Source: Cryomorphaceae bacterium BACL11 MAG-121001-bin54
GTDB lineage: Bacteria; Bacteroidota; Bacteroidia; Flavobacteriales; BACL11
DNA: 64,000 nt
Reading direction: 5' to 3'
NCBI GenBank assembly: GCA_905182255.1
Contig: CAJJAH010000002.1
Location: forward strand, 12,069-76,068
The stretch's first letter is position 1; every line of letters begins with the position of its first letter. The notes below the pieces were generated by a model. That model was not told the origin of the DNA. It ran no database searches and saw only the letters and a list, made by a program, of their open reading frames with translations. The position numbers and the translations under genes were made by a program. Positions 1-7,713 of the stretch are shown here, one piece after another.

Positions 1-1
1 G

Positions 2-433
2 CCATTACTTTTTACAACTTGTAAGAAAGAAGACGAAGAGCCAACATCTATATCAATTCTAGGAAGTTGGGAAAGTATTGAATGGAAAGCCTTATATAGT
101 AGTGGATATTGGACTTCTTTCCCTAACGGACAAAAAGTAATAACATATAATAGCAGTGAAACAGAAGACTTTTGGTTAGATTTAATCTTTTTATCAGATG
201 GTGATGTTTTGGGGATTGATGAAGATGGTTTCTCAATGCCTGGATCTTGGGCTAAAAATGGAAACACTTTAATAATAGATGACAATAACTTTACTATTAC
301 TAATTTAAGTGCTTCATCTTTAACAGTGTATACAACTGAAGCAGATACAAGTACTCCCTATTGGAATCCAATGAATGATACAATATATTTTACTGAACGA
401 ACTGATACAATTAAATGGATAAGAAACAATTAA
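2..433 (+). CDS. Lipocalin-like outer-membrane lipoprotein, 5'-truncated by the window edge
   Basis: The frame of ORF 209..433 is open back to position 2: PLLFTTC-KKEDEEPTSISILGSWES... This shows a lipobox Cys, a K/D/E-rich surface-export-like motif and a lipocalin-like 'ILGSW' motif. Confidence 0.7.
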   Translation, partial: PLLFTTCKKEDEEPTSISILGSWESIEWKALYSSGYWTSFPNGQKVITYNSSETEDFWLDLIFLSDGDVLGIDEDGFSMPGSWAKNGNTLIIDDNNFTITNLSASSLTVYTTEADTSTPYWNPMNDTIYFTERTDTIKWIRNN

Positions 434-475
434 AACAATAGATTAACAATAAACTAAGATTATGAAAAAACTACT
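431..475 (+). repeat. Shared stop-spacer-start module, copy 1
   Basis: taaaacaatagattaacaat (431-450) matches 4852-4871 at 19/20 nt. It is followed by atgaaaaaactact, as at 818 and 4870. Confidence 0.65.
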
Positions 476-752
476 TTACTTAACAATTTTGATATTTAGC
501 CTAACTTCTTGTGTTGATGAAGAAGAGAAGTGCATAGATCAAATAAAATCTTGTATTATTAACAAAGGAGGTGAACTTTGTATTTCTATAGCCATTAATG
601 AATATTGTGGTACAAATTTTGATCCTCATTTTAATGAATGGTGGTATGAAATGCAAGATTGGGCAAAAGAATCTGATTTAAATAAGAAAAAACTAATTAA
701 GCTTGCAAATAAAATAGAGAAAGAAGCAGAAAAACAGTTAGCAAGGAGTTAG
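462..752 (+). CDS. Hypothetical lipoprotein
   Basis: MKKLLYLTILIFSLTSC lipobox followed by acidic VDEEE; no recognisable domain. Confidence 0.7.
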   Translation: MKKLLYLTILIFSLTSCVDEEEKCIDQIKSCIINKGGELCISIAINEYCGTNFDPHFNEWWYEMQDWAKESDLNKKKLIKLANKIEKEAEKQLARS

Positions 753-817
753 ATGAAATTGCTCGCATTTGGATAAAAAAAGAGATTTGTAGAGTTAAAA
801 AATAGATTAATAAACAA

Positions 818-1582
818 ATGAAAAAACTACTAATTATATTACTTTACTTACCTATGATTGGGTTTGGGCAAAACGTAAACATACCTGACGCTAACTTTAA
901 AGCATATTTAGTTGGAGAGCCTTCTATTAATACTAATGGAGATTCTGAGATACAAGTAAGCGAGGCTGCTGCTTTTAATGACACTATTGATTGCGATAAT
1001 AAAAATATTTCTGATTTAACAGGAATTGAATCCTTTACTTTACTTAATGCTCTTAGTTGCAATAATAACAACCTCACTAATCTAGACTTATCTAATAATA
1101 TAGAATTAATTCTTATATATTGCGCGTACAATCAAATTAGCTCTATTAATGTAAGTAATAATGAAGATTTAATTATGTTAGGTGCTGAAAATAATTTACT
1201 TAGCTCCATTGATGTCAGTAATAATACCAATCTAGTCAATTTGATATGTTATTCTAATCAATTACTAAGTGCCGATGTGAGGAATGGAAACAATCAGAAT
1301 GCAGAATGGTATATGTTTAGCGATAATCCAAATTTAGAATGTATTAATGTAGATAATCCAACTTACTCTACTAATAATTGGTTAGTTGCTTTTGGAATGA
1401 TTGATTCATCAATGTATTTTAGTAGTAACTGTAATAACTCAACATTAATTCAAGAACAAACTAAAAACAAAAAACTACTTAAAATTACAGACCTATTAGG
1501 AAGAGAAACAAAACAAATCAACCAACCACTCTTTTACATCTACAATGATAGAACAGTAGAGAAAAGAATAGTTGTAGAATAA
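818..1582 (+). CDS. Secreted leucine-rich-repeat protein with a short T9SS type-A-like C-terminal sorting domain
   Basis: Signal peptide ending FGQ; IPDANFK...N.NGD.EIQVSEA N-cap; LRRs of the LxxLxCxxNxLxxLDLSNN type; tail KLLKITDLLGRET...YNDRTVEKRIVVE. Confidence 0.85.
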   Translation: MKKLLIILLYLPMIGFGQNVNIPDANFKAYLVGEPSINTNGDSEIQVSEAAAFNDTIDCDNKNISDLTGIESFTLLNALSCNNNNLTNLDLSNNIELILIYCAYNQISSINVSNNEDLIMLGAENNLLSSIDVSNNTNLVNLICYSNQLLSADVRNGNNQNAEWYMFSDNPNLECINVDNPTYSTNNWLVAFGMIDSSMYFSSNCNNSTLIQEQTKNKKLLKITDLLGRETKQINQPLFYIYNDRTVEKRIVVE

Positions 1583-1583
1583 A
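1538..1583 (+). repeat. Direct repeat, left copy (3' end of the sorting-signal coding sequence)
   Basis: 42/46 nt identical to 4810-4855, with an exact 29-nt core atgatagaacagtagagaaaagaatagtt (1545-1573 = 4817-4845). Confidence 0.9.
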
Positions 1584-1784
1584 TAATTAAATTTACTTAC
1601 TTTAAAACAATTAGCTAACTTAAATCCCTGTAAATTTTATAAATATATTTAAAGATTTAGAGAGTTATAAAATTGATCTTAAGTGTGAGTGTTTAAGTGT
1701 ATTGCTTGAAGTAGAAGTTGAGGTGTTGTTTACGATATTTAGTTTTTGAACTCTATAAATCAGGCCTATTATCATTAAGTTTAA

Positions 1785-1792
1785 TATATTTG
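1785..1792 (+). promoter_or_regulatory. Bacteroidota housekeeping-sigma -7 element upstream of the SPFH operon
   Basis: TATATTTG matches the TAnnTTTG consensus, about 165 nt upstream of ATG 1957. Confidence 0.55.
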
Positions 1793-1956
1793 CAAAGCAG
1801 GCTATAAATAACTTTATACTCTTGTTAAAAGATGTCCTAATAGGTGCACCTTTAAGAATGTAAAATATAAGTTACTGATAACAAGCAATATACTGGATAG
1901 GTTCATTTCCTGATTCGTATGCTAAAAAATTTAAGTTTTAAAAAACAACTATTATT

Positions 1957-2694
1957 ATGTATAATGAAAAATTTGAAAAATTAATTGAATTAGCCTTAGT
2001 TGATGGTGAAGTTACTGATAAAGAGAAAAATATTCTTTTAAGAAAAGCTGAAGAGAATGGAATTGACCTTGATGAATTTGAAATGGTGCTTGATGCAAAA
2101 TTGTATGAAAAACAGCAAAGTATTAAACAAACAAAACCAGAAGATTCTAATACTGTAAAAACTGATAAATTTGGTGATGTAAAGAAATGTCCTGCATGTG
2201 GTTCAATGATTCAATCTTTTCAAATTAAATGTATTGATTGTGATCATGAATTTTCAAATATTGAGGCAAATACTTCTATTCAAAAGCTTTCTAAATTATT
2301 ATACGAAGCAGAGAGCCAGAGAGATGATAAAGTTACAGCAAGTAGTGTAATTGGTGGGTTATTTAAAAACTCTCTTGGGGGTGGTGCACTATCCAATGCT
2401 TTAGGTGGAGAATCCAAGACTGATAAAAGGAAAAAAGAAATTATTTCTACATTTTCTGTTCCTAACACAAAAGCTGATATTCTAGATTTTTTATCTTTAG
2501 CTTTTCCAAAATCAAAAAGTAAAGGAAATTTTTTTACAAAAAATAATCCAGAATATATAGAACATAATGAGTTTGTATCAGTATGGAAAACAAAGTCTGA
2601 ACAAATAATTATGAAAGCAAGATTTTCAATGAAAGATGATAAAAAAACGCTGGATGAAATTAACTATTATGCTAATCAATTAAAAATATCATAA
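1957..2694 (+). CDS. Protein with a TerB-like N-terminal helical domain and a zinc ribbon
   Basis: LIELALVDGEVTDKEKNILLRKAEENGI is a TerB-like DG..T..E motif; CPACG...CIDC forms a Zn ribbon; the C-terminal domain is helical; no signal peptide. Confidence 0.7.
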   Translation: MYNEKFEKLIELALVDGEVTDKEKNILLRKAEENGIDLDEFEMVLDAKLYEKQQSIKQTKPEDSNTVKTDKFGDVKKCPACGSMIQSFQIKCIDCDHEFSNIEANTSIQKLSKLLYEAESQRDDKVTASSVIGGLFKNSLGGGALSNALGGESKTDKRKKEIISTFSVPNTKADILDFLSLAFPKSKSKGNFFTKNNPEYIEHNEFVSVWKTKSEQIIMKARFSMKDDKKTLDEINYYANQLKIS

Positions 2695-2696
2695 AT

Positions 2697-4052
2697 ATGG
2701 GGTTATTTGGAAAAAAATCAGAAGGTGGATTAATGGATGTTATACGTTGTGATGAACAAGAATATCTTGTTTGGAAATGGCGACCATCTGGAGAAGCAGA
2801 TTTTACAAAAAAGGAAAATGCGATTCGTTATGGTAGTAATCTAAGGATCAAAGATGGAGAGCTTGCTGTTTTTGTATATAAGAAGGATGAAGGTGAAAAT
2901 CAAGATTTTATTATTGGACCTCATGATCAATCATTAAAAACTGCAAACTTCCCTGTTTTAGCAAGTATTGTTGGACTTGCTTTTGGTGGAAAATCCCCTT
3001 TTCAAGCAGAAATATATTTTATAAATCTTTCAGGTAATATTCAAATAAGATTCGGTATTCCGTATTTTGATGTTTTTGATCCTCGATTTATGGACTTTGC
3101 TGTACCTATGGCTGCTAGAGGAACTCTTACATTTAATATTACAGATTATAAAGGTTTTATTAAATTAAATCGCTTAATAAATTTTGAATTGGATAACTTT
3201 AAAAAGCAAATTAAGGATGCTTTAACGAAATATATTAAAGGTGTTGTTACAAATATACCTTCAGATAATGGTATGCCTGTTTTACAGATGGAAAGAAAGA
3301 TGCTAGAAGTTAATGATTTGGTTTCTAAATATTTAGGTCCTCGTTTAGAAGCAGATTTTGGTATTAATATGAAGGCATTAGATATTTCACATTTAGAATG
3401 TGATAAGGATGCAAAGGGATATGCTGAATTAAGAAAAGTTACTTCAGAACAAGTTACTAAAACTATTGCTGGACAGACAGACATTAATATTAAAAATCTT
3501 AAGGATACTCAAGAAATTAATGCAAAAAATATGAATGAAACTTTACGAATTCAAAGAGAAGAAGCACAAAGAGCTCAGAAACTACAGACTGAATCTCAAA
3601 ATATTTCTGTTCATCAGTTGAATCAACAGACAGAAGTAGCAAAAACTGCAGCTGAAAGTATGGGTAAAATGGGTTCTGGTGGCGGAGATGGTTCTGGTGG
3701 AGGTGGCGGTGGCGGAATGATGGATCCTGGATCAATGATGGCAAGTATGGCTATGGGTGGAGCAGTTGGCTCTGGAATGGCTGGTGCTGTTGGTGGGATG
3801 ATGCAAGGCATGAATCAAGATAAACAAACTCCTCCTCCTCCTCCTCAAGTTCAGTATAATATTTCTGTTGGTGGACAAAAGAGTGGCCCTTTTGGTTGGG
3901 ATATATTAAAGGAAATGGTACAAAGCAGTCAAATCACAAAAGACACATATGTTTGGAAACAAGGAATGGAAAAATGGGAGTTTGCAAAAGATGTTGAGGA
4001 ATTATCTTCACTATTTGGATCAATAGCACCTCCACCACCACCATTACCTTAA
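2697..4052 (+). CDS. SPFH (Band-7, YdjI-like) protein with coiled coil, Gly/Met-rich linker, poly-Pro and C-terminal GYF_2 (DUF4339) domain
   Basis: MGLF...DVIRCDE..LVWKW; G.HDQSLKTANFPVL..IVG..FGGKSPFQAEIYFIN (YdjI-type SPFH); C-terminal Y.I...GQKSGPF...TYVWKQGMEKW flanked by PPPPP runs. Confidence 0.85.
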   Translation: MGLFGKKSEGGLMDVIRCDEQEYLVWKWRPSGEADFTKKENAIRYGSNLRIKDGELAVFVYKKDEGENQDFIIGPHDQSLKTANFPVLASIVGLAFGGKSPFQAEIYFINLSGNIQIRFGIPYFDVFDPRFMDFAVPMAARGTLTFNITDYKGFIKLNRLINFELDNFKKQIKDALTKYIKGVVTNIPSDNGMPVLQMERKMLEVNDLVSKYLGPRLEADFGINMKALDISHLECDKDAKGYAELRKVTSEQVTKTIAGQTDINIKNLKDTQEINAKNMNETLRIQREEAQRAQKLQTESQNISVHQLNQQTEVAKTAAESMGKMGSGGGDGSGGGGGGGMMDPGSMMASMAMGGAVGSGMAGAVGGMMQGMNQDKQTPPPPPQVQYNISVGGQKSGPFGWDILKEMVQSSQITKDTYVWKQGMEKWEFAKDVEELSSLFGSIAPPPPPLP

Positions 4053-4075
4053 ATATTAACTAAAATAAATATATT

Positions 4076-4432
4076 ATGAATGATAGTAATTTTTTTTCAA
4101 TGGATAGGTTAGTCGAATTTGGTATGGGTTTAACTGTTGCTCAGCAAATGATTAAAACAATGAATGAATCTATGACAACTATGCATATACCTGGTGCAAT
4201 GAATTCTATGGATAAGCCTCAGCAAATTTTTTTTTATGTAATAATTGAAGATAAGCAAGCAGGTCCTTTTTCTGAAAATGAATTAGCTAGATTAATTTCA
4301 GAAAAAAAAGTTGTTAAAGAAACTTATGTTTGGTTGCCTAGTTTACCAAGTTGGAAAATGGCAGAACAGATTCCTGAAGTTTTAAAATTAGTTGCTCTAG
4401 CTCCACCTCCTTTTAATTTAAATAAATTATGA
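4076..4432 (+). CDS. Small GYF_2 (DUF4339) domain protein
   Basis: FFYVIIEDKQAGPFS..EL......TYVWLPSLPSW motif; Met-rich N-terminal helix; APPPF tail. Confidence 0.8.
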   Translation: MNDSNFFSMDRLVEFGMGLTVAQQMIKTMNESMTTMHIPGAMNSMDKPQQIFFYVIIEDKQAGPFSENELARLISEKKVVKETYVWLPSLPSWKMAEQIPEVLKLVALAPPPFNLNKL

Positions 4433-4773
4433 AATTAAATTTTGTAAATCTTTTTATAGCTCTTTTAATATCTACCTTATTGTCTTGCGGTTTGTTTAGC
4501 TTTAATAAATCAGAAAATGATATGTTATTAACTTTAGGAGGTTTTCTGTGCTTTCTATTAACATTAGTTATTTCAATGGGAGTTGATTTTCAAAGGCTAA
4601 GAACTACAACAAATATTCGTGTTGTTTCTATTTTTTTCTTTTTAATTACCTTAGTAAGTAATTTAATTTTTGCAAATTTTATTTTTAATGTTCCTCTTTA
4701 TATTATTATAAATGGAGTACTTATACTTATTTATATTTTTATTGCAAAATCTATTTACACCTCAAAACAATAA
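4429..4773 (+). CDS. Four-TM membrane protein, translationally coupled to the GYF_2 gene
   Basis: Four hydrophobic stretches in 114 aa; ATGA start/stop overlap at 4429-4432. Confidence 0.75.
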   Translation: MKLNFVNLFIALLISTLLSCGLFSFNKSENDMLLTLGGFLCFLLTLVISMGVDFQRLRTTTNIRVVSIFFFLITLVSNLIFANFIFNVPLYIIINGVLILIYIFIAKSIYTSKQ

Positions 4774-4854
4774 ATAATAAAAACAAAACCCAATATTCCA
4801 TTCATTGAAATCTATGATGATAGAACAGTAGAGAAAAGAATAGTTATTGAATAA
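4774..4854 (+). pseudogene. Orphan C-terminal sorting-signal remnant (no start codon); contains the right direct-repeat copy 4810-4855
   Basis: Reads IIKTKPNIPFIEIYDDRTVEKRIVIE* directly after stop 4773; homologous to the C-terminus of 818..1582. Confidence 0.8.
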
Positions 4855-4869
4855 AACAAAAGATTAACA

Positions 4870-4932
4870 ATGAAAAAACTACTAATTATATTACTTTGTT
4901 TAACTATGATTGGGCTTGAGTTAGAATATTAA
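4870..4932 (+). pseudogene. Orphan signal-peptide remnant, MKKLLIILLCLTMIGLELEY*
   Basis: The first 45 nt are 42/45 identical to the start of 818..1582; the frame stops after 20 codons. Confidence 0.8.
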
Positions 4933-4936
4933 GATT

Positions 4937-5659
4937 ATGTATAAAAAAATAATCTCTTTTATTTTAGTAATAATTTTTATTTATCTGTTATTTTATTTTA
5001 TTCCAATTTATAAAGGCAATTCTAAAGCGATTTTTAATAATTATCAAAAATTATGGGCTCATAGAGTATTGGATGTTAATGATGCTAATAATAAGTTTGT
5101 AAATTTTAAAGGAATAGAGATTGATGTTTTTTTTGAAATAGAAAAAAATGTTTTTGATGTAAGACATCATGGTAAATATAGAGGCAATACTCTATTAAAT
5201 TTTCTAAGGAATATAAATGATAAAGAATTATTTATTTGGATTGATTTAAAAAATCTAAACAATAAAAATGTTCTAGCTATACGTGATAGATTAAGTGTAA
5301 TAATTGATAGTGGTGTAAATAAAGAACATCTATTAATTGAATCTAAGAATATAGAATTGTTAGAGGTATTACAAAATGAAGGGTTTTATGTAAGTTATTG
5401 GTTACCAAATTTTAATCTTATCAAGAGTACCTATGAAGTTTTTCAAGTGAAAAATGATTTAATAAAATATAAACCAAATGCGATATCATGTTCTTATCAT
5501 AATGTTGATTTTTACTCTAGGAAATTCCCAAAATATAATTTACATTGTTGGACAAACGGCCTAGAAGAAGGAAGAGATAACTTGAAAGTTTTTAAAATTA
5601 GCTTAAGGGATAATGTTAAGGTTATCTTAGTAGATTTTGAAAATAATTTTATACAATAA
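4937..5659 (+). CDS. Membrane-anchored GDPD/PLC-like phosphodiesterase-fold protein
   Basis: N-terminal TM helix; KLWAHRV, GIEIDV and FDVRHH motifs typical of PLC-like phosphodiesterase TIM barrels. Confidence 0.55.
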   Translation: MYKKIISFILVIIFIYLLFYFIPIYKGNSKAIFNNYQKLWAHRVLDVNDANNKFVNFKGIEIDVFFEIEKNVFDVRHHGKYRGNTLLNFLRNINDKELFIWIDLKNLNNKNVLAIRDRLSVIIDSGVNKEHLLIESKNIELLEVLQNEGFYVSYWLPNFNLIKSTYEVFQVKNDLIKYKPNAISCSYHNVDFYSRKFPKYNLHCWTNGLEEGRDNLKVFKISLRDNVKVILVDFENNFIQ

Positions 5660-5694
5660 ATTATTTAGTCATTATAAAATCTTAGCATAAATTT

Positions 5695-6261
5695 TTACTG
5701 CTTTCTAAACGAATTAGCCAATATTAAAATAATTATAGACTGTAATACTACTAAAAAGTAATGTAAGATATTAATTTGAATCTTGGCATCATTAATGTTA
5801 AAACCATATTCAAGTGCTTTGTAAAATAAAAAAGAGAGGCCTAATCCTAATAAATAGCCCAATTGCTTATTTATGTCAATTCTTCCTATAAATACTTTAT
5901 CTTTTGCAACTAGAGTTTCTGCTCTAACCAAATACCCTCCAAAAATAAAAGTTAACTGATAGCCCATGTATACTAATAGAGCTGAAGTAAACGTGTATTG
6001 TAAAATCATAAATAGTATTAAAGTAAACAGCATTATTATTTCAACTCCCAATGAGATTTGAAAAAATTTTCTGATATTTAACAATCTGTCATAAAATTTA
6101 GCAATAACTAACATTGCTGCAGCTAGAACAATGCCACCTAAGGAATATATTGAAGGGTCTGAAAGTGGTTGGTAAATAGTAAATAATATACCAATTGATA
6201 AACCTGTAAAAGATGAATTTAGTAATTTATACCAAAGAAAATATTTCTCATTTAACTTCAA
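5695..6261 (-). CDS. Hypothetical integral membrane protein (about 6 TM, half-MFS-like)
   Basis: 188 aa, mostly hydrophobic helices; lies 12 nt downstream of gap on the same strand. Confidence 0.6.
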   Translation of the reverse strand: MKLNEKYFLWYKLLNSSFTGLSIGILFTIYQPLSDPSIYSLGGIVLAAAMLVIAKFYDRLLNIRKFFQISLGVEIIMLFTLILFMILQYTFTSALLVYMGYQLTFIFGGYLVRAETLVAKDKVFIGRIDINKQLGYLLGLGLSFLFYKALEYGFNINDAKIQINILHYFLVVLQSIIILILANSFRKQ

Positions 6262-6273
6262 CTTTAGTGCCTA

Positions 6274-7713
6274 TTAATAGTAGGTTAACCTTCTTACTTT
6301 AGCAATTTGTTTTGCCAGACGTATAACTTGCTTAGTGTAGCCAAACTCATTATCATACCAAATATAAAGTACAATATCTTCACCATCTTCAGTGACAATA
6401 GTCGCTTTACTATCATAAACAGAGCAACAATTATTTCCAATTATATCAGTAGATACTAATTCAGGATCAATTTGATAGTTAATTTGATTTACTAAATTTC
6501 CATTTAGAGCTGCCTCTCTCATTGTTTCATTAATGTCAATTAATGATGTAGGCTTATTTAGGTTAAGTTTTAAAATTGCTAGTGAAACATTTGGTGTAGG
6601 AACGCGAACGGCATTTGCTGAAAGTTTTCCAGCTAAAGAAGGTATTACTTTAGTAACGGCATTACCTGCTCCTGTAGAAGTGATTACCATGTTAATTGCT
6701 GCTGACCTTCCTCTTCTCGGTTTTTTGTGCATATTGTCTAACAAATTTTGATCATTTGTATAAGAATGAACAGTTTCTAAATGTCCTTTGTTTACGCCAT
6801 ATTTGTTTTCTACAACATGCAAAATAGGAGCAATGCAGTTTGTCGTACAAGAAGCTGCTGAAAAAATATCTATTTTATCAACATCAATATCTTTAGAGTT
6901 AATTCCGTAAACTATATTTGGAATTCCTTTTCCAGGAGCTGTTAATAATACTTTACTAACTCCTTTTGATTGTAAGTGTCTTGATAGAGCCTCTTTGTCA
7001 GTAAAAGCTCCAGTATTGTCAATTAATAATGCATTTTCAATTTCATACTTAGTATAGTCAATATCTTCAGGATTACCTCCATCAATAAATTTTATAACTT
7101 GTCCGTTGACAATTATAGCTTGGTTAACTAAATCAACATCAACAACACCTTTAAAAGCTCCATGAACAGAGTCGTTTCTTAATAAATCAGCTCTTTTAAT
7201 AATTTGAGCATCAGATAGTTTTCTTACAACTATAGCTTTTAGCCTTAATTGCTGACCTTTTCCTGCTTGTTTTATAAGCTCTCTAGCAGCTAATCTTCCA
7301 ATTCTGCCGAATCCATAAAGTATAACATCTTTTGGTTTAACATTATGCTTGTCTGGGCCAATAAAGTTAGCAAGTTTTATAGATAGGAAAGAATTCATAT
7401 CTGTGCCTCCTTGCTCAAAATATTCAGCACTCAGCAATCCAATGTCTATTTTTGAAGGAGCCAAGTTAAGTTTTAACATTTCTTCAGCTAATGCAGCGGC
7501 TATTTCAATATTTACTGTTCTGTTTACTACGTTGTTAGAATAAGAAATAGAATTCATTAATTCCGAAACCCCAATTTCTAATAGTTGATTTCTAAAAAGA
7601 ATTAATTCAATTCCTTTATCATACATTAATGTTCCTACAGAGTTTAACAAATTTACTCCTAATTTTTCTTTATTTACCCAATTATTCAATTGTGTTTCAT
7701 AAGATTCTGACAT
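6274..7713 (-). CDS. gap: Glyceraldehyde-3-phosphate dehydrogenase, long form with N-terminal extension
   Basis: YGFGRIGR dinucleotide-binding motif, catalytic ASCTTNC, WYDNEFGY. Confidence 0.97.
   Translation of the reverse strand: MSESYETQLNNWVNKEKLGVNLLNSVGTLMYDKGIELILFRNQLLEIGVSELMNSISYSNNVVNRTVNIEIAAALAEEMLKLNLAPSKIDIGLLSAEYFEQGGTDMNSFLSIKLANFIGPDKHNVKPKDVILYGFGRIGRLAARELIKQAGKGQQLRLKAIVVRKLSDAQIIKRADLLRNDSVHGAFKGVVDVDLVNQAIIVNGQVIKFIDGGNPEDIDYTKYEIENALLIDNTGAFTDKEALSRHLQSKGVSKVLLTAPGKGIPNIVYGINSKDIDVDKIDIFSAASCTTNCIAPILHVVENKYGVNKGHLETVHSYTNDQNLLDNMHKKPRRGRSAAINMVITSTGAGNAVTKVIPSLAGKLSANAVRVPTPNVSLAILKLNLNKPTSLIDINETMREAALNGNLVNQINYQIDPELVSTDIIGNNCCSVYDSKATIVTEDGEDIVLYIWYDNEFGYTKQVIRLAKQIAKVRRLTYY

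Follow-up and report, generated by a model that had tools for sequence, protein, structure and literature searches.

A mobile four-gene operon of Bacteroidota centred on an SPFH-GYF_2 protein: a candidate PspA-independent membrane scaffold

SPFH proteins are found in every domain of life, and what the bacterial ones enclose or regulate is mostly unknown. The closest studied relative of the system described here is the pspA-ydjGHI (samGHI) operon of Bacillus subtilis. According to passages of two papers, its SPFH protein SamI is recruited by two membrane proteins, SamG with a zinc (Zn) finger and SamH with a TPM domain, and is required for PspA foci (PMC8581546, PMC13713150). The GYF domain of the Myxococcus protein GltJ binds a proline-rich sequence of AglZ, and approximately 44% of bacterial GYF proteins have an adjacent Zn ribbon, as stated in parts of PMC11135422. 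The combination of SPFH/Band 7 and GYF domains is listed in a figure legend of Balaji and Aravind 2007 (PMC2034487), passages of which also note the proline tracts that flank bacterial GYF domains and their transmembrane (TM) neighbours. Here, we describe a four-gene operon, p1-p4, from the Cryomorphaceae bacterium BACL11 MAG-121001-bin54. It is located near the beginning of a 64,000-nucleotide stretch of contig CAJJAH010000002.1, which is referred to as the window. The genes encode a Zn-ribbon protein (p1), an SPFH protein with a GYF_2 tail (p2), a small GYF_2 protein (p3), and a protein with four hydrophobic spans (p4). The four-gene module is real, conserved, and mobile, and it is a variant of the SPFH scaffold kind; a description of the operon was not found in the literature. 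A preliminary description, prepared from the DNA sequence of the window, had already pointed to the Bacillus operon, which remains the closest studied system.

The four open reading frames (ORFs) are on the same strand, and their exact coordinates, as given by ORF calling, are listed in Table 1. The stop codon of p1 (TAA, 2692-2694) is followed by the nucleotides AT and by the start codon of p2 (ATG at 2697), which corresponds to a gap of 2 nt. A spacer of 23 nt (4053-4075) separates p2 from p3, and the stop codon of p3 overlaps with the start codon of p4 in the sequence ATGA (4429-4432). These are the junctions from which the preliminary description had claimed tight co-directional linkage, and all of them read as claimed. 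Its domain labels for the last three genes are also borne out, by Pfam matches in the case of SPFH-GYF_2 (p2) and GYF_2 (p3), and by hydropathy spans in the case of the four-TM protein (p4).

The four genes occur together in related loci. Of 7999 scored candidates, 7992 are relatives of p2 at E ≤ 0.001; the best 120 relatives are 81-97% identical to p2, and all of them contain both domains. A scan of species-representative genomes identified 147 relatives of p2, and the best 80 loci were analysed by calling their ORFs and scoring them with p1-p4. A p1 gene is positioned upstream of p2 and on the same strand in 65 of the 66 loci that have at least 1600 nt of upstream DNA. Downstream DNA of 3200 nt or more is available at 50 loci, of which 46 have p3 and 48 have p4 on this side of p2. 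The complete set is found in 38 of the 43 loci with both flanks, with the order and strand of the genes kept, and the neighbourhood survey that had been named earlier as a check of four-gene conservation therefore turns out positive. In most loci, p3 and p4 either lie 4 nt apart or overlap by 4 nt. The p4 protein has 114 residues at most of the loci, and p3 approximately 117. The co-conservation of the four genes in related loci indicates that p1-p4 form a unit. The spacer between p2 and p3 is longer than 300 nt in 20 of 70 loci and then contains small genes, with bPH_1 proteins in four loci.

The genes flanking the module are highly diverse, with 977 called genes falling into 550 clusters. 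The module is also rare, as judged from samples of genomes and from a source genome that is only 53% complete. In a sample of 400 other genomes from the phylum, 2 have a match to p2 at E ≤ 1e-30. Among 400 other genomes drawn from the order, a p2 match was found in 3, which belong to a single genus, and in the family of the source genome, none of 62 genomes has one. A search of 15 other species of the genus and 9 other genera of the family found no close homologue of p2, but only a Band_7_1 paralogue with 23% identity. A test for patchy distribution had been suggested in the preliminary description, and the samples from the phylum, the order, and the 15 sister species show that the distribution is patchy. 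Record titles assign the 77 loci in the p2 tree to Flavobacteriales (37), Bacteroidales (14), Saprospirales, Chitinophagales, Cytophagales, and Kapaibacterium, and to single bins of Ignavibacteriota, Verrucomicrobiota, and Pseudomonadota. The FastTree phylogeny of the 77 p2 proteins mixes the orders, and its well-supported branches force at least four label changes for Flavobacteriales and at least three for Bacteroidales. With 99% support, the tree places a Lentimicrobiaceae sequence and a pair from Saprospirales and Chitinophagales inside a Flavobacteriales set; mis-binned contigs could inflate the mixing. The rarity, the variable flanks, and the order-mixing tree together indicate that the module is a horizontally spread accessory cassette.

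The DNA around the operon in the window is accessory as well. Synteny with five genomes of the same genus begins only at position 5692, and the 17.7 kb to the left of this point, up to the start of the contig, have no syntenic counterpart in the sister genome G015, which supports the earlier proposal that the operon is located in an accessory island. The non-syntenic stretch is rich in genes of surface proteins with type IX secretion system (T9SS) tails. There is no indication that phages carry the module: a pattern scan of IMG/VR found no copy, and the only phage-labelled record with a related protein, an UNVERIFIED 'Bacteriophage sp.' entry (MT835670.1, locus L087), encodes a p2 that is 54% identical. 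In this record, a double-Zn-ribbon protein, an SPFH-GYF_2 protein, and a 108-residue protein are encoded among genes for an ABC transporter, a two-component system, GGDEF proteins, and bactofilin. Because no phage genes accompany them, carriage by a phage was rejected for MT835670.1, which is probably of bacterial origin. Thirty plasmid records contain relatives of p2, all with less than 60% identity, and those listed, at 23-28%, are distant SPFH relatives only. A plasmid from Vibrio coralliilyticus (L091) carries a distant SPFH-GYF protein and a hypothetical gene next to genes with TIR and TRAFs-binding domains.

The p2 protein matches Band_7_1 (PF13421) with 84.3 bits (Pfam cut-off 24; 86.6 bits in the genome search) and GYF_2 (PF14237) with 58.7 bits (cut-off 25.8). 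The SPFH core is divergent, because other Band_7_1 proteins from Bacteroidota score 205-323 bits against the same family, compared with 84 bits for p2. The AlphaFold model, calculated from an alignment of 51 sequences, has a mean predicted local distance difference test (pLDDT) value of 66 and is confident in the SPFH core, the long helix, and the GYF domain. A Foldseek search with this model resulted in 41 matches at E ≤ 0.001, and all of those listed are SPFH or vault proteins. The top matches are the cages of flotillin, erlin, HflK/C, stomatin, and prohibitin, with QmcA-YbbJ lower. The hydropathy scan of p2 does not contain a hydrophobic span. The absence of such a span and the similarity of the model to cage-forming SPFH proteins agree with the earlier claim of a soluble, cage-type SPFH protein. 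The proline tracts P379-P383 and P445-P448 of p2 are nearly invariant, and p2 proteins from different orders are 57-85% identical. The GYF region matches the solved GYF chain of GltJ (7z3c) weakly, with an E value of 0.053. A match of residues 245-343 to Snf7/ESCRT-III (E 9.6e-5) was rejected, as the alignment passes through poly-Gly sequence of the matched chain and through a coiled coil of low complexity. Residues 323-383 of p2 and the N-terminus of p3 (4076-4210) are unusually rich in Met and Gly, with MxxM-like runs. It is possible that these regions provide amphipathic membrane contact, bind hydrophobic segments, or bind metal.

The small p3 protein matches GYF_2 with 49.8 bits (cut-off 25.8) and has no hydrophobic span. 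It aligns to residues 365-441 of p2, indicating that p3 is a separate copy of the tail of p2. Its proline tract P110-P112 is nearly invariant, and the identity of p3 proteins across orders is 37-82%. Of the four proteins, p4 is the only one with hydrophobic spans, which supports its earlier designation as the membrane member of the set. The basic loop RTTTNIR between spans two and three is conserved (R58, T59). There is no Pfam or NCBIfam family match for p4, and it has no soluble domain. A match to YijD was discarded, since its score of 0.87 is below the trust level, and the ESM Atlas otherwise gave only unnamed clusters from Bacteroidota. A single longer protein that matches p4, encoded on a 1.4-kb contig, contains an SNF2-family N-terminal domain (PF00176) and was also rejected.

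The p1 protein is the variable part of the module. The predicted model of the window copy (pLDDT 80) begins with a unit of three helices, which a disordered linker separates from the Zn ribbon and the C-terminal helical bundle. The Zn ribbon of the window copy scores 17.1 bits against Zn_ribbon_3, below the Pfam cut-off of 27. However, the motif CPxC...CxxC is invariant across 45 homologues of p1, and 38 of the 45 match Zn_ribbon_3, so that the Zn ribbon assigned in the preliminary description holds for the family. The N-terminal unit (residues 1-58) carries a TerB-like DGE..E hairpin, in which D16, G17, E21, and E23 show little or no variation in the alignment of the 45 homologues. Weak TerB matches were found in 31 of the 45 members of the family, always on the last hairpin of the profile, and DUF533 is matched by 13. 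Three long p1 paralogues exceed the TerB cut-off, with 27.5-28.8 bits. The p1 of the window has no TM segment, its highest 19-residue hydropathy being 0.83. A comparison of the p1 profile with sequences from the PDB gave ribosomal bL32-type Zn ribbons only and was set aside, and matches in the ESM Atlas are limited to unnamed clusters from Bacteroidota. Two or three copies of p1 are present at 7 of 66 loci, the complete copies are 177-536 residues long, and some copies or paralogues have additional Zn ribbons, TPR repeats, or TM-like segments. The preliminary description missed that the Zn-ribbon genes are variable and can be multiple, and it also missed the polyproline tracts paired with GYF domains and the recurrent cation-channel neighbours described below.

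We give about an even chance to the reading that the module is a PspA-independent SPFH scaffold beneath the membrane, similar to SamI/YdjI, which is assembled on p4 by GYF-polyproline contacts and uses exchangeable Zn-ribbon proteins as adaptors. The physical contacts and the physiological role in this mechanism are what we infer. The p2 protein would use its SPFH domain and long helix to form an oligomeric ring or cage on the cytoplasmic side of the inner membrane. Because p2 lacks a membrane anchor of its own, we propose that it is tethered to the membrane by p4, which alone among the four proteins is integral to the membrane. The link between p2 and p4 may be formed by multivalent contacts of the GYF_2 domains of p2 and p3 with the conserved polyproline tracts of the same two proteins. 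The likely bridge would be p3, which is a copy of the p2 tail and is translationally coupled to p4. With its TerB-like acidic hairpin, Zn ribbon, and variable C-terminal domain, p1 may serve as an exchangeable sensor or adaptor, through which a cue or a client would be connected with the scaffold. Membrane proteins, with cation channels as a recurrent case, are the probable clients, and the role of the module would be to organize or gate them, along with ion flux, when the membrane is under stress.

Several observations weigh against the scaffold mechanism. The TerB match of the window p1 reaches 13.6 bits, below the cut-off of 24.4 (PF05099), and covers only positions 79-114 of the 118 in the profile; the TerB-like label given to p1 in the preliminary description is thus borne out only in part. 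A Foldseek search with the p1 model gave no match at E ≤ 0.001. The best hits to p1 in VIA, designed helical proteins with Z up to 7.8, were rejected as within the noise of helical bundles; most of the VIA rows align to residues 100-245, and the N-terminal unit is barely covered. No convincing fusion of p3 with p4, or of other members, was found among longer proteins, which is weak evidence against contacts of the proposed kind. Channel genes, as putative clients, are limited to 12 of the 80 loci and do not include the window. Two features of SamGHI are different here: SamG is anchored in the membrane, whereas the window p1 has a TerB-like N-terminus and no TM segment, and SamH has a TPM domain, whereas p4 is a bare four-TM protein. 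The rarity and mobility of the module are unusual for general membrane homeostasis and also fit conflict systems. Finally, the stretch is nearly identical to sequences in marine and seawater metagenomes from several studies, and parts of each of the four genes are matched with 90-99% identity by RNA-library contigs of four studies, but DNA carry-over or close relatives are possible sources of these contigs. They provide a weak hint that the module is transcribed; none of them convincingly bridges two genes, and the uncovered parts are uninformative.

The distribution of the module could alternatively reflect an anti-phage or abortive-infection function, in which the SPFH cage and p3 hold p4 inactive until a phage cue, received through p1, frees p4 to depolarize the membrane. 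The data presented here neither support a role in defence nor rule it out, and we regard it as unlikely. The module has a rare and patchy occurrence and has spread horizontally, it is located in a variable region of the window, and p1 is multi-copy and variable, as might be the case for a diversifying sensor. To this may be added the genes in its vicinity. A comparison with PADLOC models covered 278 of the 334 representative flanking proteins with 150 or more residues, from 59 loci. Matches at E ≤ 1e-20 occur within 7 kb of the module at 18 of the 59 loci, which is a raw count without a background rate for comparison, and many of them are to candidate (PDC) or generic-enzyme models. Clear matches are a Type I restriction endonuclease (L020), AbiEi (L024), a Type II methyltransferase (L030), and PbeC (L033); PD-T4-3 is directly upstream of p1 in L036, and mad3/mad8 are present in L045. 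The nearest neighbours of the module (118 proteins scanned, representatives of 128) include recombinase, transposase, or integrase domains in six loci, proteins with T9SS tails in six, a PvuRts1I-like nuclease (L085), and a single PemK toxin (L031). Most of the nearest neighbours that can be named are, however, genes for housekeeping enzymes or surface proteins, with a few nucleases. Within the module, there is no enzymatic effector, and the strong conservation of p2 and p3 across orders is a further point against defence, as are the lack of copies in the pattern scan of IMG/VR and the bacterial appearance of the only 'phage' record. The p1-p4 proteins have no credible match in PADLOC-DB 2.0, in which the best E values are 0.0047-0.073, to models of homing endonucleases or KwaB over short stretches, the lowest of them on the Zn ribbon. 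Nothing in NCBIfam scores above the cut-offs for p1-p4 either, which is in line with the earlier statement that no named system matches the operon.

Stomatin-family proteins regulate eukaryotic ion channels. By analogy, the module could be dedicated to ion flux, with the scaffold clustering or gating cation channels, p4 as a channel subunit or docking site, and the p1 hairpin reading a divalent cation. Cation-channel genes adjoin the module in 12 of the 80 loci (L013, L016, L017, L025, L032, L035, L039, L042, L047, L062, L063, L064), in eight of them within 250 nt and on the same strand. The channels are of the Castor/Pollux-RCK type at nine loci, iGluR-like at four, and of the Ion_trans type at L032, and their genes often follow directly after p4 on the same strand. 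In addition, a Bax1-I family protein is encoded beside the module in L050, the fold matches of p2 include the structure of a stomatin cage in complex with aquaporin 1, and the acidic residues of the p1 hairpin, together with G17, are conserved. Nevertheless, this explanation is improbable: 68 of the 80 loci, including that of the window, have no adjoining channel gene, p4 does not match a channel family, and the binding of metal by p1 is deduced from a match below the threshold. Beside the module in the window, there is no channel, YidD, or bPH_1 gene. Elements of the last two explanations are combined in the idea of a mobile alarm module, in which an SPFH cage, put together by multivalent GYF-polyproline contacts, would cover an ion-flux-controlling p4, and swappable TerB/Zn-ribbon adaptors would act as the trigger, for example in response to cation influx upon membrane damage or to phage entry. 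We consider this idea doubtful; if true, the module would be a PspA-free response to membrane damage or a new kind of abortive-infection system.

It is very unlikely that the module is a chaperone for the biogenesis or quality control of membrane proteins, like HflK/C-FtsH or QmcA-YbbJ, with p4 as an NfeD-like TM partner inside the cage: both complexes are among the fold matches of p2, and the membrane-insertion factor YidD is a neighbour in five loci and also of a distant Bacteroides SPFH/Zn-ribbon operon, but there is no protease or NfeD domain in or beside the module, p4 lacks a soluble domain, and a rare, mobile distribution would be odd for quality control.

Table 1. Features of the p1-p4 operon and its borders, in positions of the window
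Feature	Position	Strand	Description
p1, 245 residues	1957..2694	+	N-terminal unit residues 1-58, disordered linker, Zn ribbon 76-98, helical bundle 100-245
p2, 451 residues	2697..4052	+	soluble Band_7_1 SPFH protein (Pfam, hydropathy, model)
p2 SPFH core	residues 36-233, nt 2802-3395	+	Band_7_1 (PF13421) match
p2 long helix	residues 240-322	+	model; 83 residues
p2 Gly/Met-rich disordered region	residues 323-383, nt 3663-3845	+	model
p2 PPPPP	residues 379-383	+	conserved
p2 GYF_2	residues 389-436, nt 3861-4004	+	Pfam match
p2 PPPPPLP	C-terminal	+	proline tract
p3, 118 residues	4076..4432	+	Met-rich N-terminus (conserved), GYF_2 residues 54-101 (nt 4235-4378), C-terminal APPPF (conserved)
p4, 114 residues	4429..4773	+	four hydrophobic spans, approximately 5-23, 32-50, 68-86, 88-106 (hydropathy scan)
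TAnnTTTG motif match TATATTTG	1785..1792	+	candidate -7 promoter motif of Bacteroidota type, 164 nt upstream of p1
3' end of upstream T9SS-tail/LRR surface-protein gene	1507..1596	+	repeat family D1
Surface-protein gene relics bounding the operon on the right	4779..4918	+	repeat families D1, D2

The spacer upstream of p1 contains a single plus-strand copy of the TAnnTTTG motif, TATATTTG. The motif that the preliminary description called the one promoter of the operon is therefore present, but it occurs in the 4.35-kb locus at the frequency expected by chance (7 found and 8.1 expected), so that the match is compatible with a promoter and is no evidence for one. The matches of a sigma-70 scan, the model of which does not cover promoters of Bacteroidota, are also at chance level. 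A scan of the locus for terminators found no terminator-like site, and an Rfam search over positions 1-6500 of the window gave nothing credible. The part of the spacer at 1785-1910, including the motif, is matched at 80% by a segment (G001:C6:9781-9918) of a sister genome without the module, and it may be a leader or promoter cassette shared by surface-protein genes.

The operon is bordered on both sides by ends of surface-protein genes. The upstream gene end (1507-1596) resembles positions 4779-4868 on the right-hand side with 74% identity. The right-hand relics consist of this 3' end followed by a 5' start that encodes a signal peptide (4869-4918) and is 92% identical to positions 817-866. 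Such D1 and D2 ends of genes for surface proteins with T9SS tails occur in several copies in each of the five sister genomes searched, which suggests that arrays of these genes may be recombination hot spots that receive cargo. An ORF of 240 residues just 3' of the operon (4937-5659), outside the module, has a hydrophobic N-terminus and belongs to no family; its homologue with 77% identity is located elsewhere in the sister genome G015 (C2:846024-846766).

The module pairs an SPFH scaffold that has no anchor with a minimal fixed set of partners, namely one four-TM protein and one free GYF adaptor, and with exchangeable Zn-ribbon proteins. It carries built-in pairs of polyproline tracts and GYF domains and would work without PspA. 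It is thus a compact system in which the recruitment of a soluble SPFH protein to the membrane and the ligands of bacterial GYF domains can be tested. It also bears on whether bacterial SPFH cages regulate cation channels, as is thought for animal stomatins, and its rarity and mobility leave room for a role in conflict with phages.

The literature search found the SPFH and GYF architecture (PMC2034487), but not a description of the four-gene operon. The main-text passages of PMC2034487 present the architecture alone, without a four-gene operon, its distribution, or partners, and the parts of the phage-shock-protein comparative-genomics papers PMC11237479 and 10.1101/2021.02.15.431232 that are relevant here contain no GYF or TerB in such a context. 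In GltJ, as described in parts of PMC11135422, a Zn ribbon and a bacterial GYF domain also cooperate on the inner side of the membrane. There, however, both domains belong to one TM protein of a motility machine, whereas here they are on separate proteins and accompanied by an SPFH scaffold, and the Mgl and AglZ context of GltJ is absent. The cage-forming SPFH complexes flotillin, stomatin, prohibitin, erlin, HflK/C-FtsH, and QmcA-YbbJ share with p2 the SPFH core followed by a long wall helix. They differ from it in anchoring themselves with a TM helix or hairpin, which p2 does not have, and they lack a GYF/polyproline tail and a Zn-ribbon partner.

The similarity to SamGHI is closer. The SPFH protein is of the Band_7_1 type in both systems and does not anchor itself in the membrane, with a low-complexity region in SamI (according to passages of PMC8581546) that corresponds to residues 323-383 of p2, and both operons additionally encode a Zn-ribbon protein and a membrane protein. 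A link to the membrane is common to both systems. The C-terminus of p2 is a GYF_2 domain, whereas that of SamI is a Zn finger, and the additional small GYF protein p3 is present only in the module described here. There is also no pspA gene in the operon. PspA_IM30 (PF04012) was found in none of five carrier genomes, including the 53% complete source genome, whereas the same search was positive in 9 of 14 control genomes, so that the term 'PspA-less' used for the module in the preliminary description is appropriate. Because the four features that define SamGHI, the Zn-finger tail, the TM segment in the p1 counterpart, the TPM domain, and PspA, are absent, the module may act like SamGHI at most and is not a member of that system. 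Other Band_7_1 operons have different compositions. Band_7_1 is combined with SHOCT in a small operon with a TPR protein in the same genus (L003, G004), and with GYF_2 in front of a Zn-ribbon protein in another family (L002, G036). A Bacteroides record contains a distant operon with helix-turn-helix, YidD, SPFH, hypothetical, and Zn-ribbon proteins. The SPFH core seems to swap C-terminal adaptor modules.

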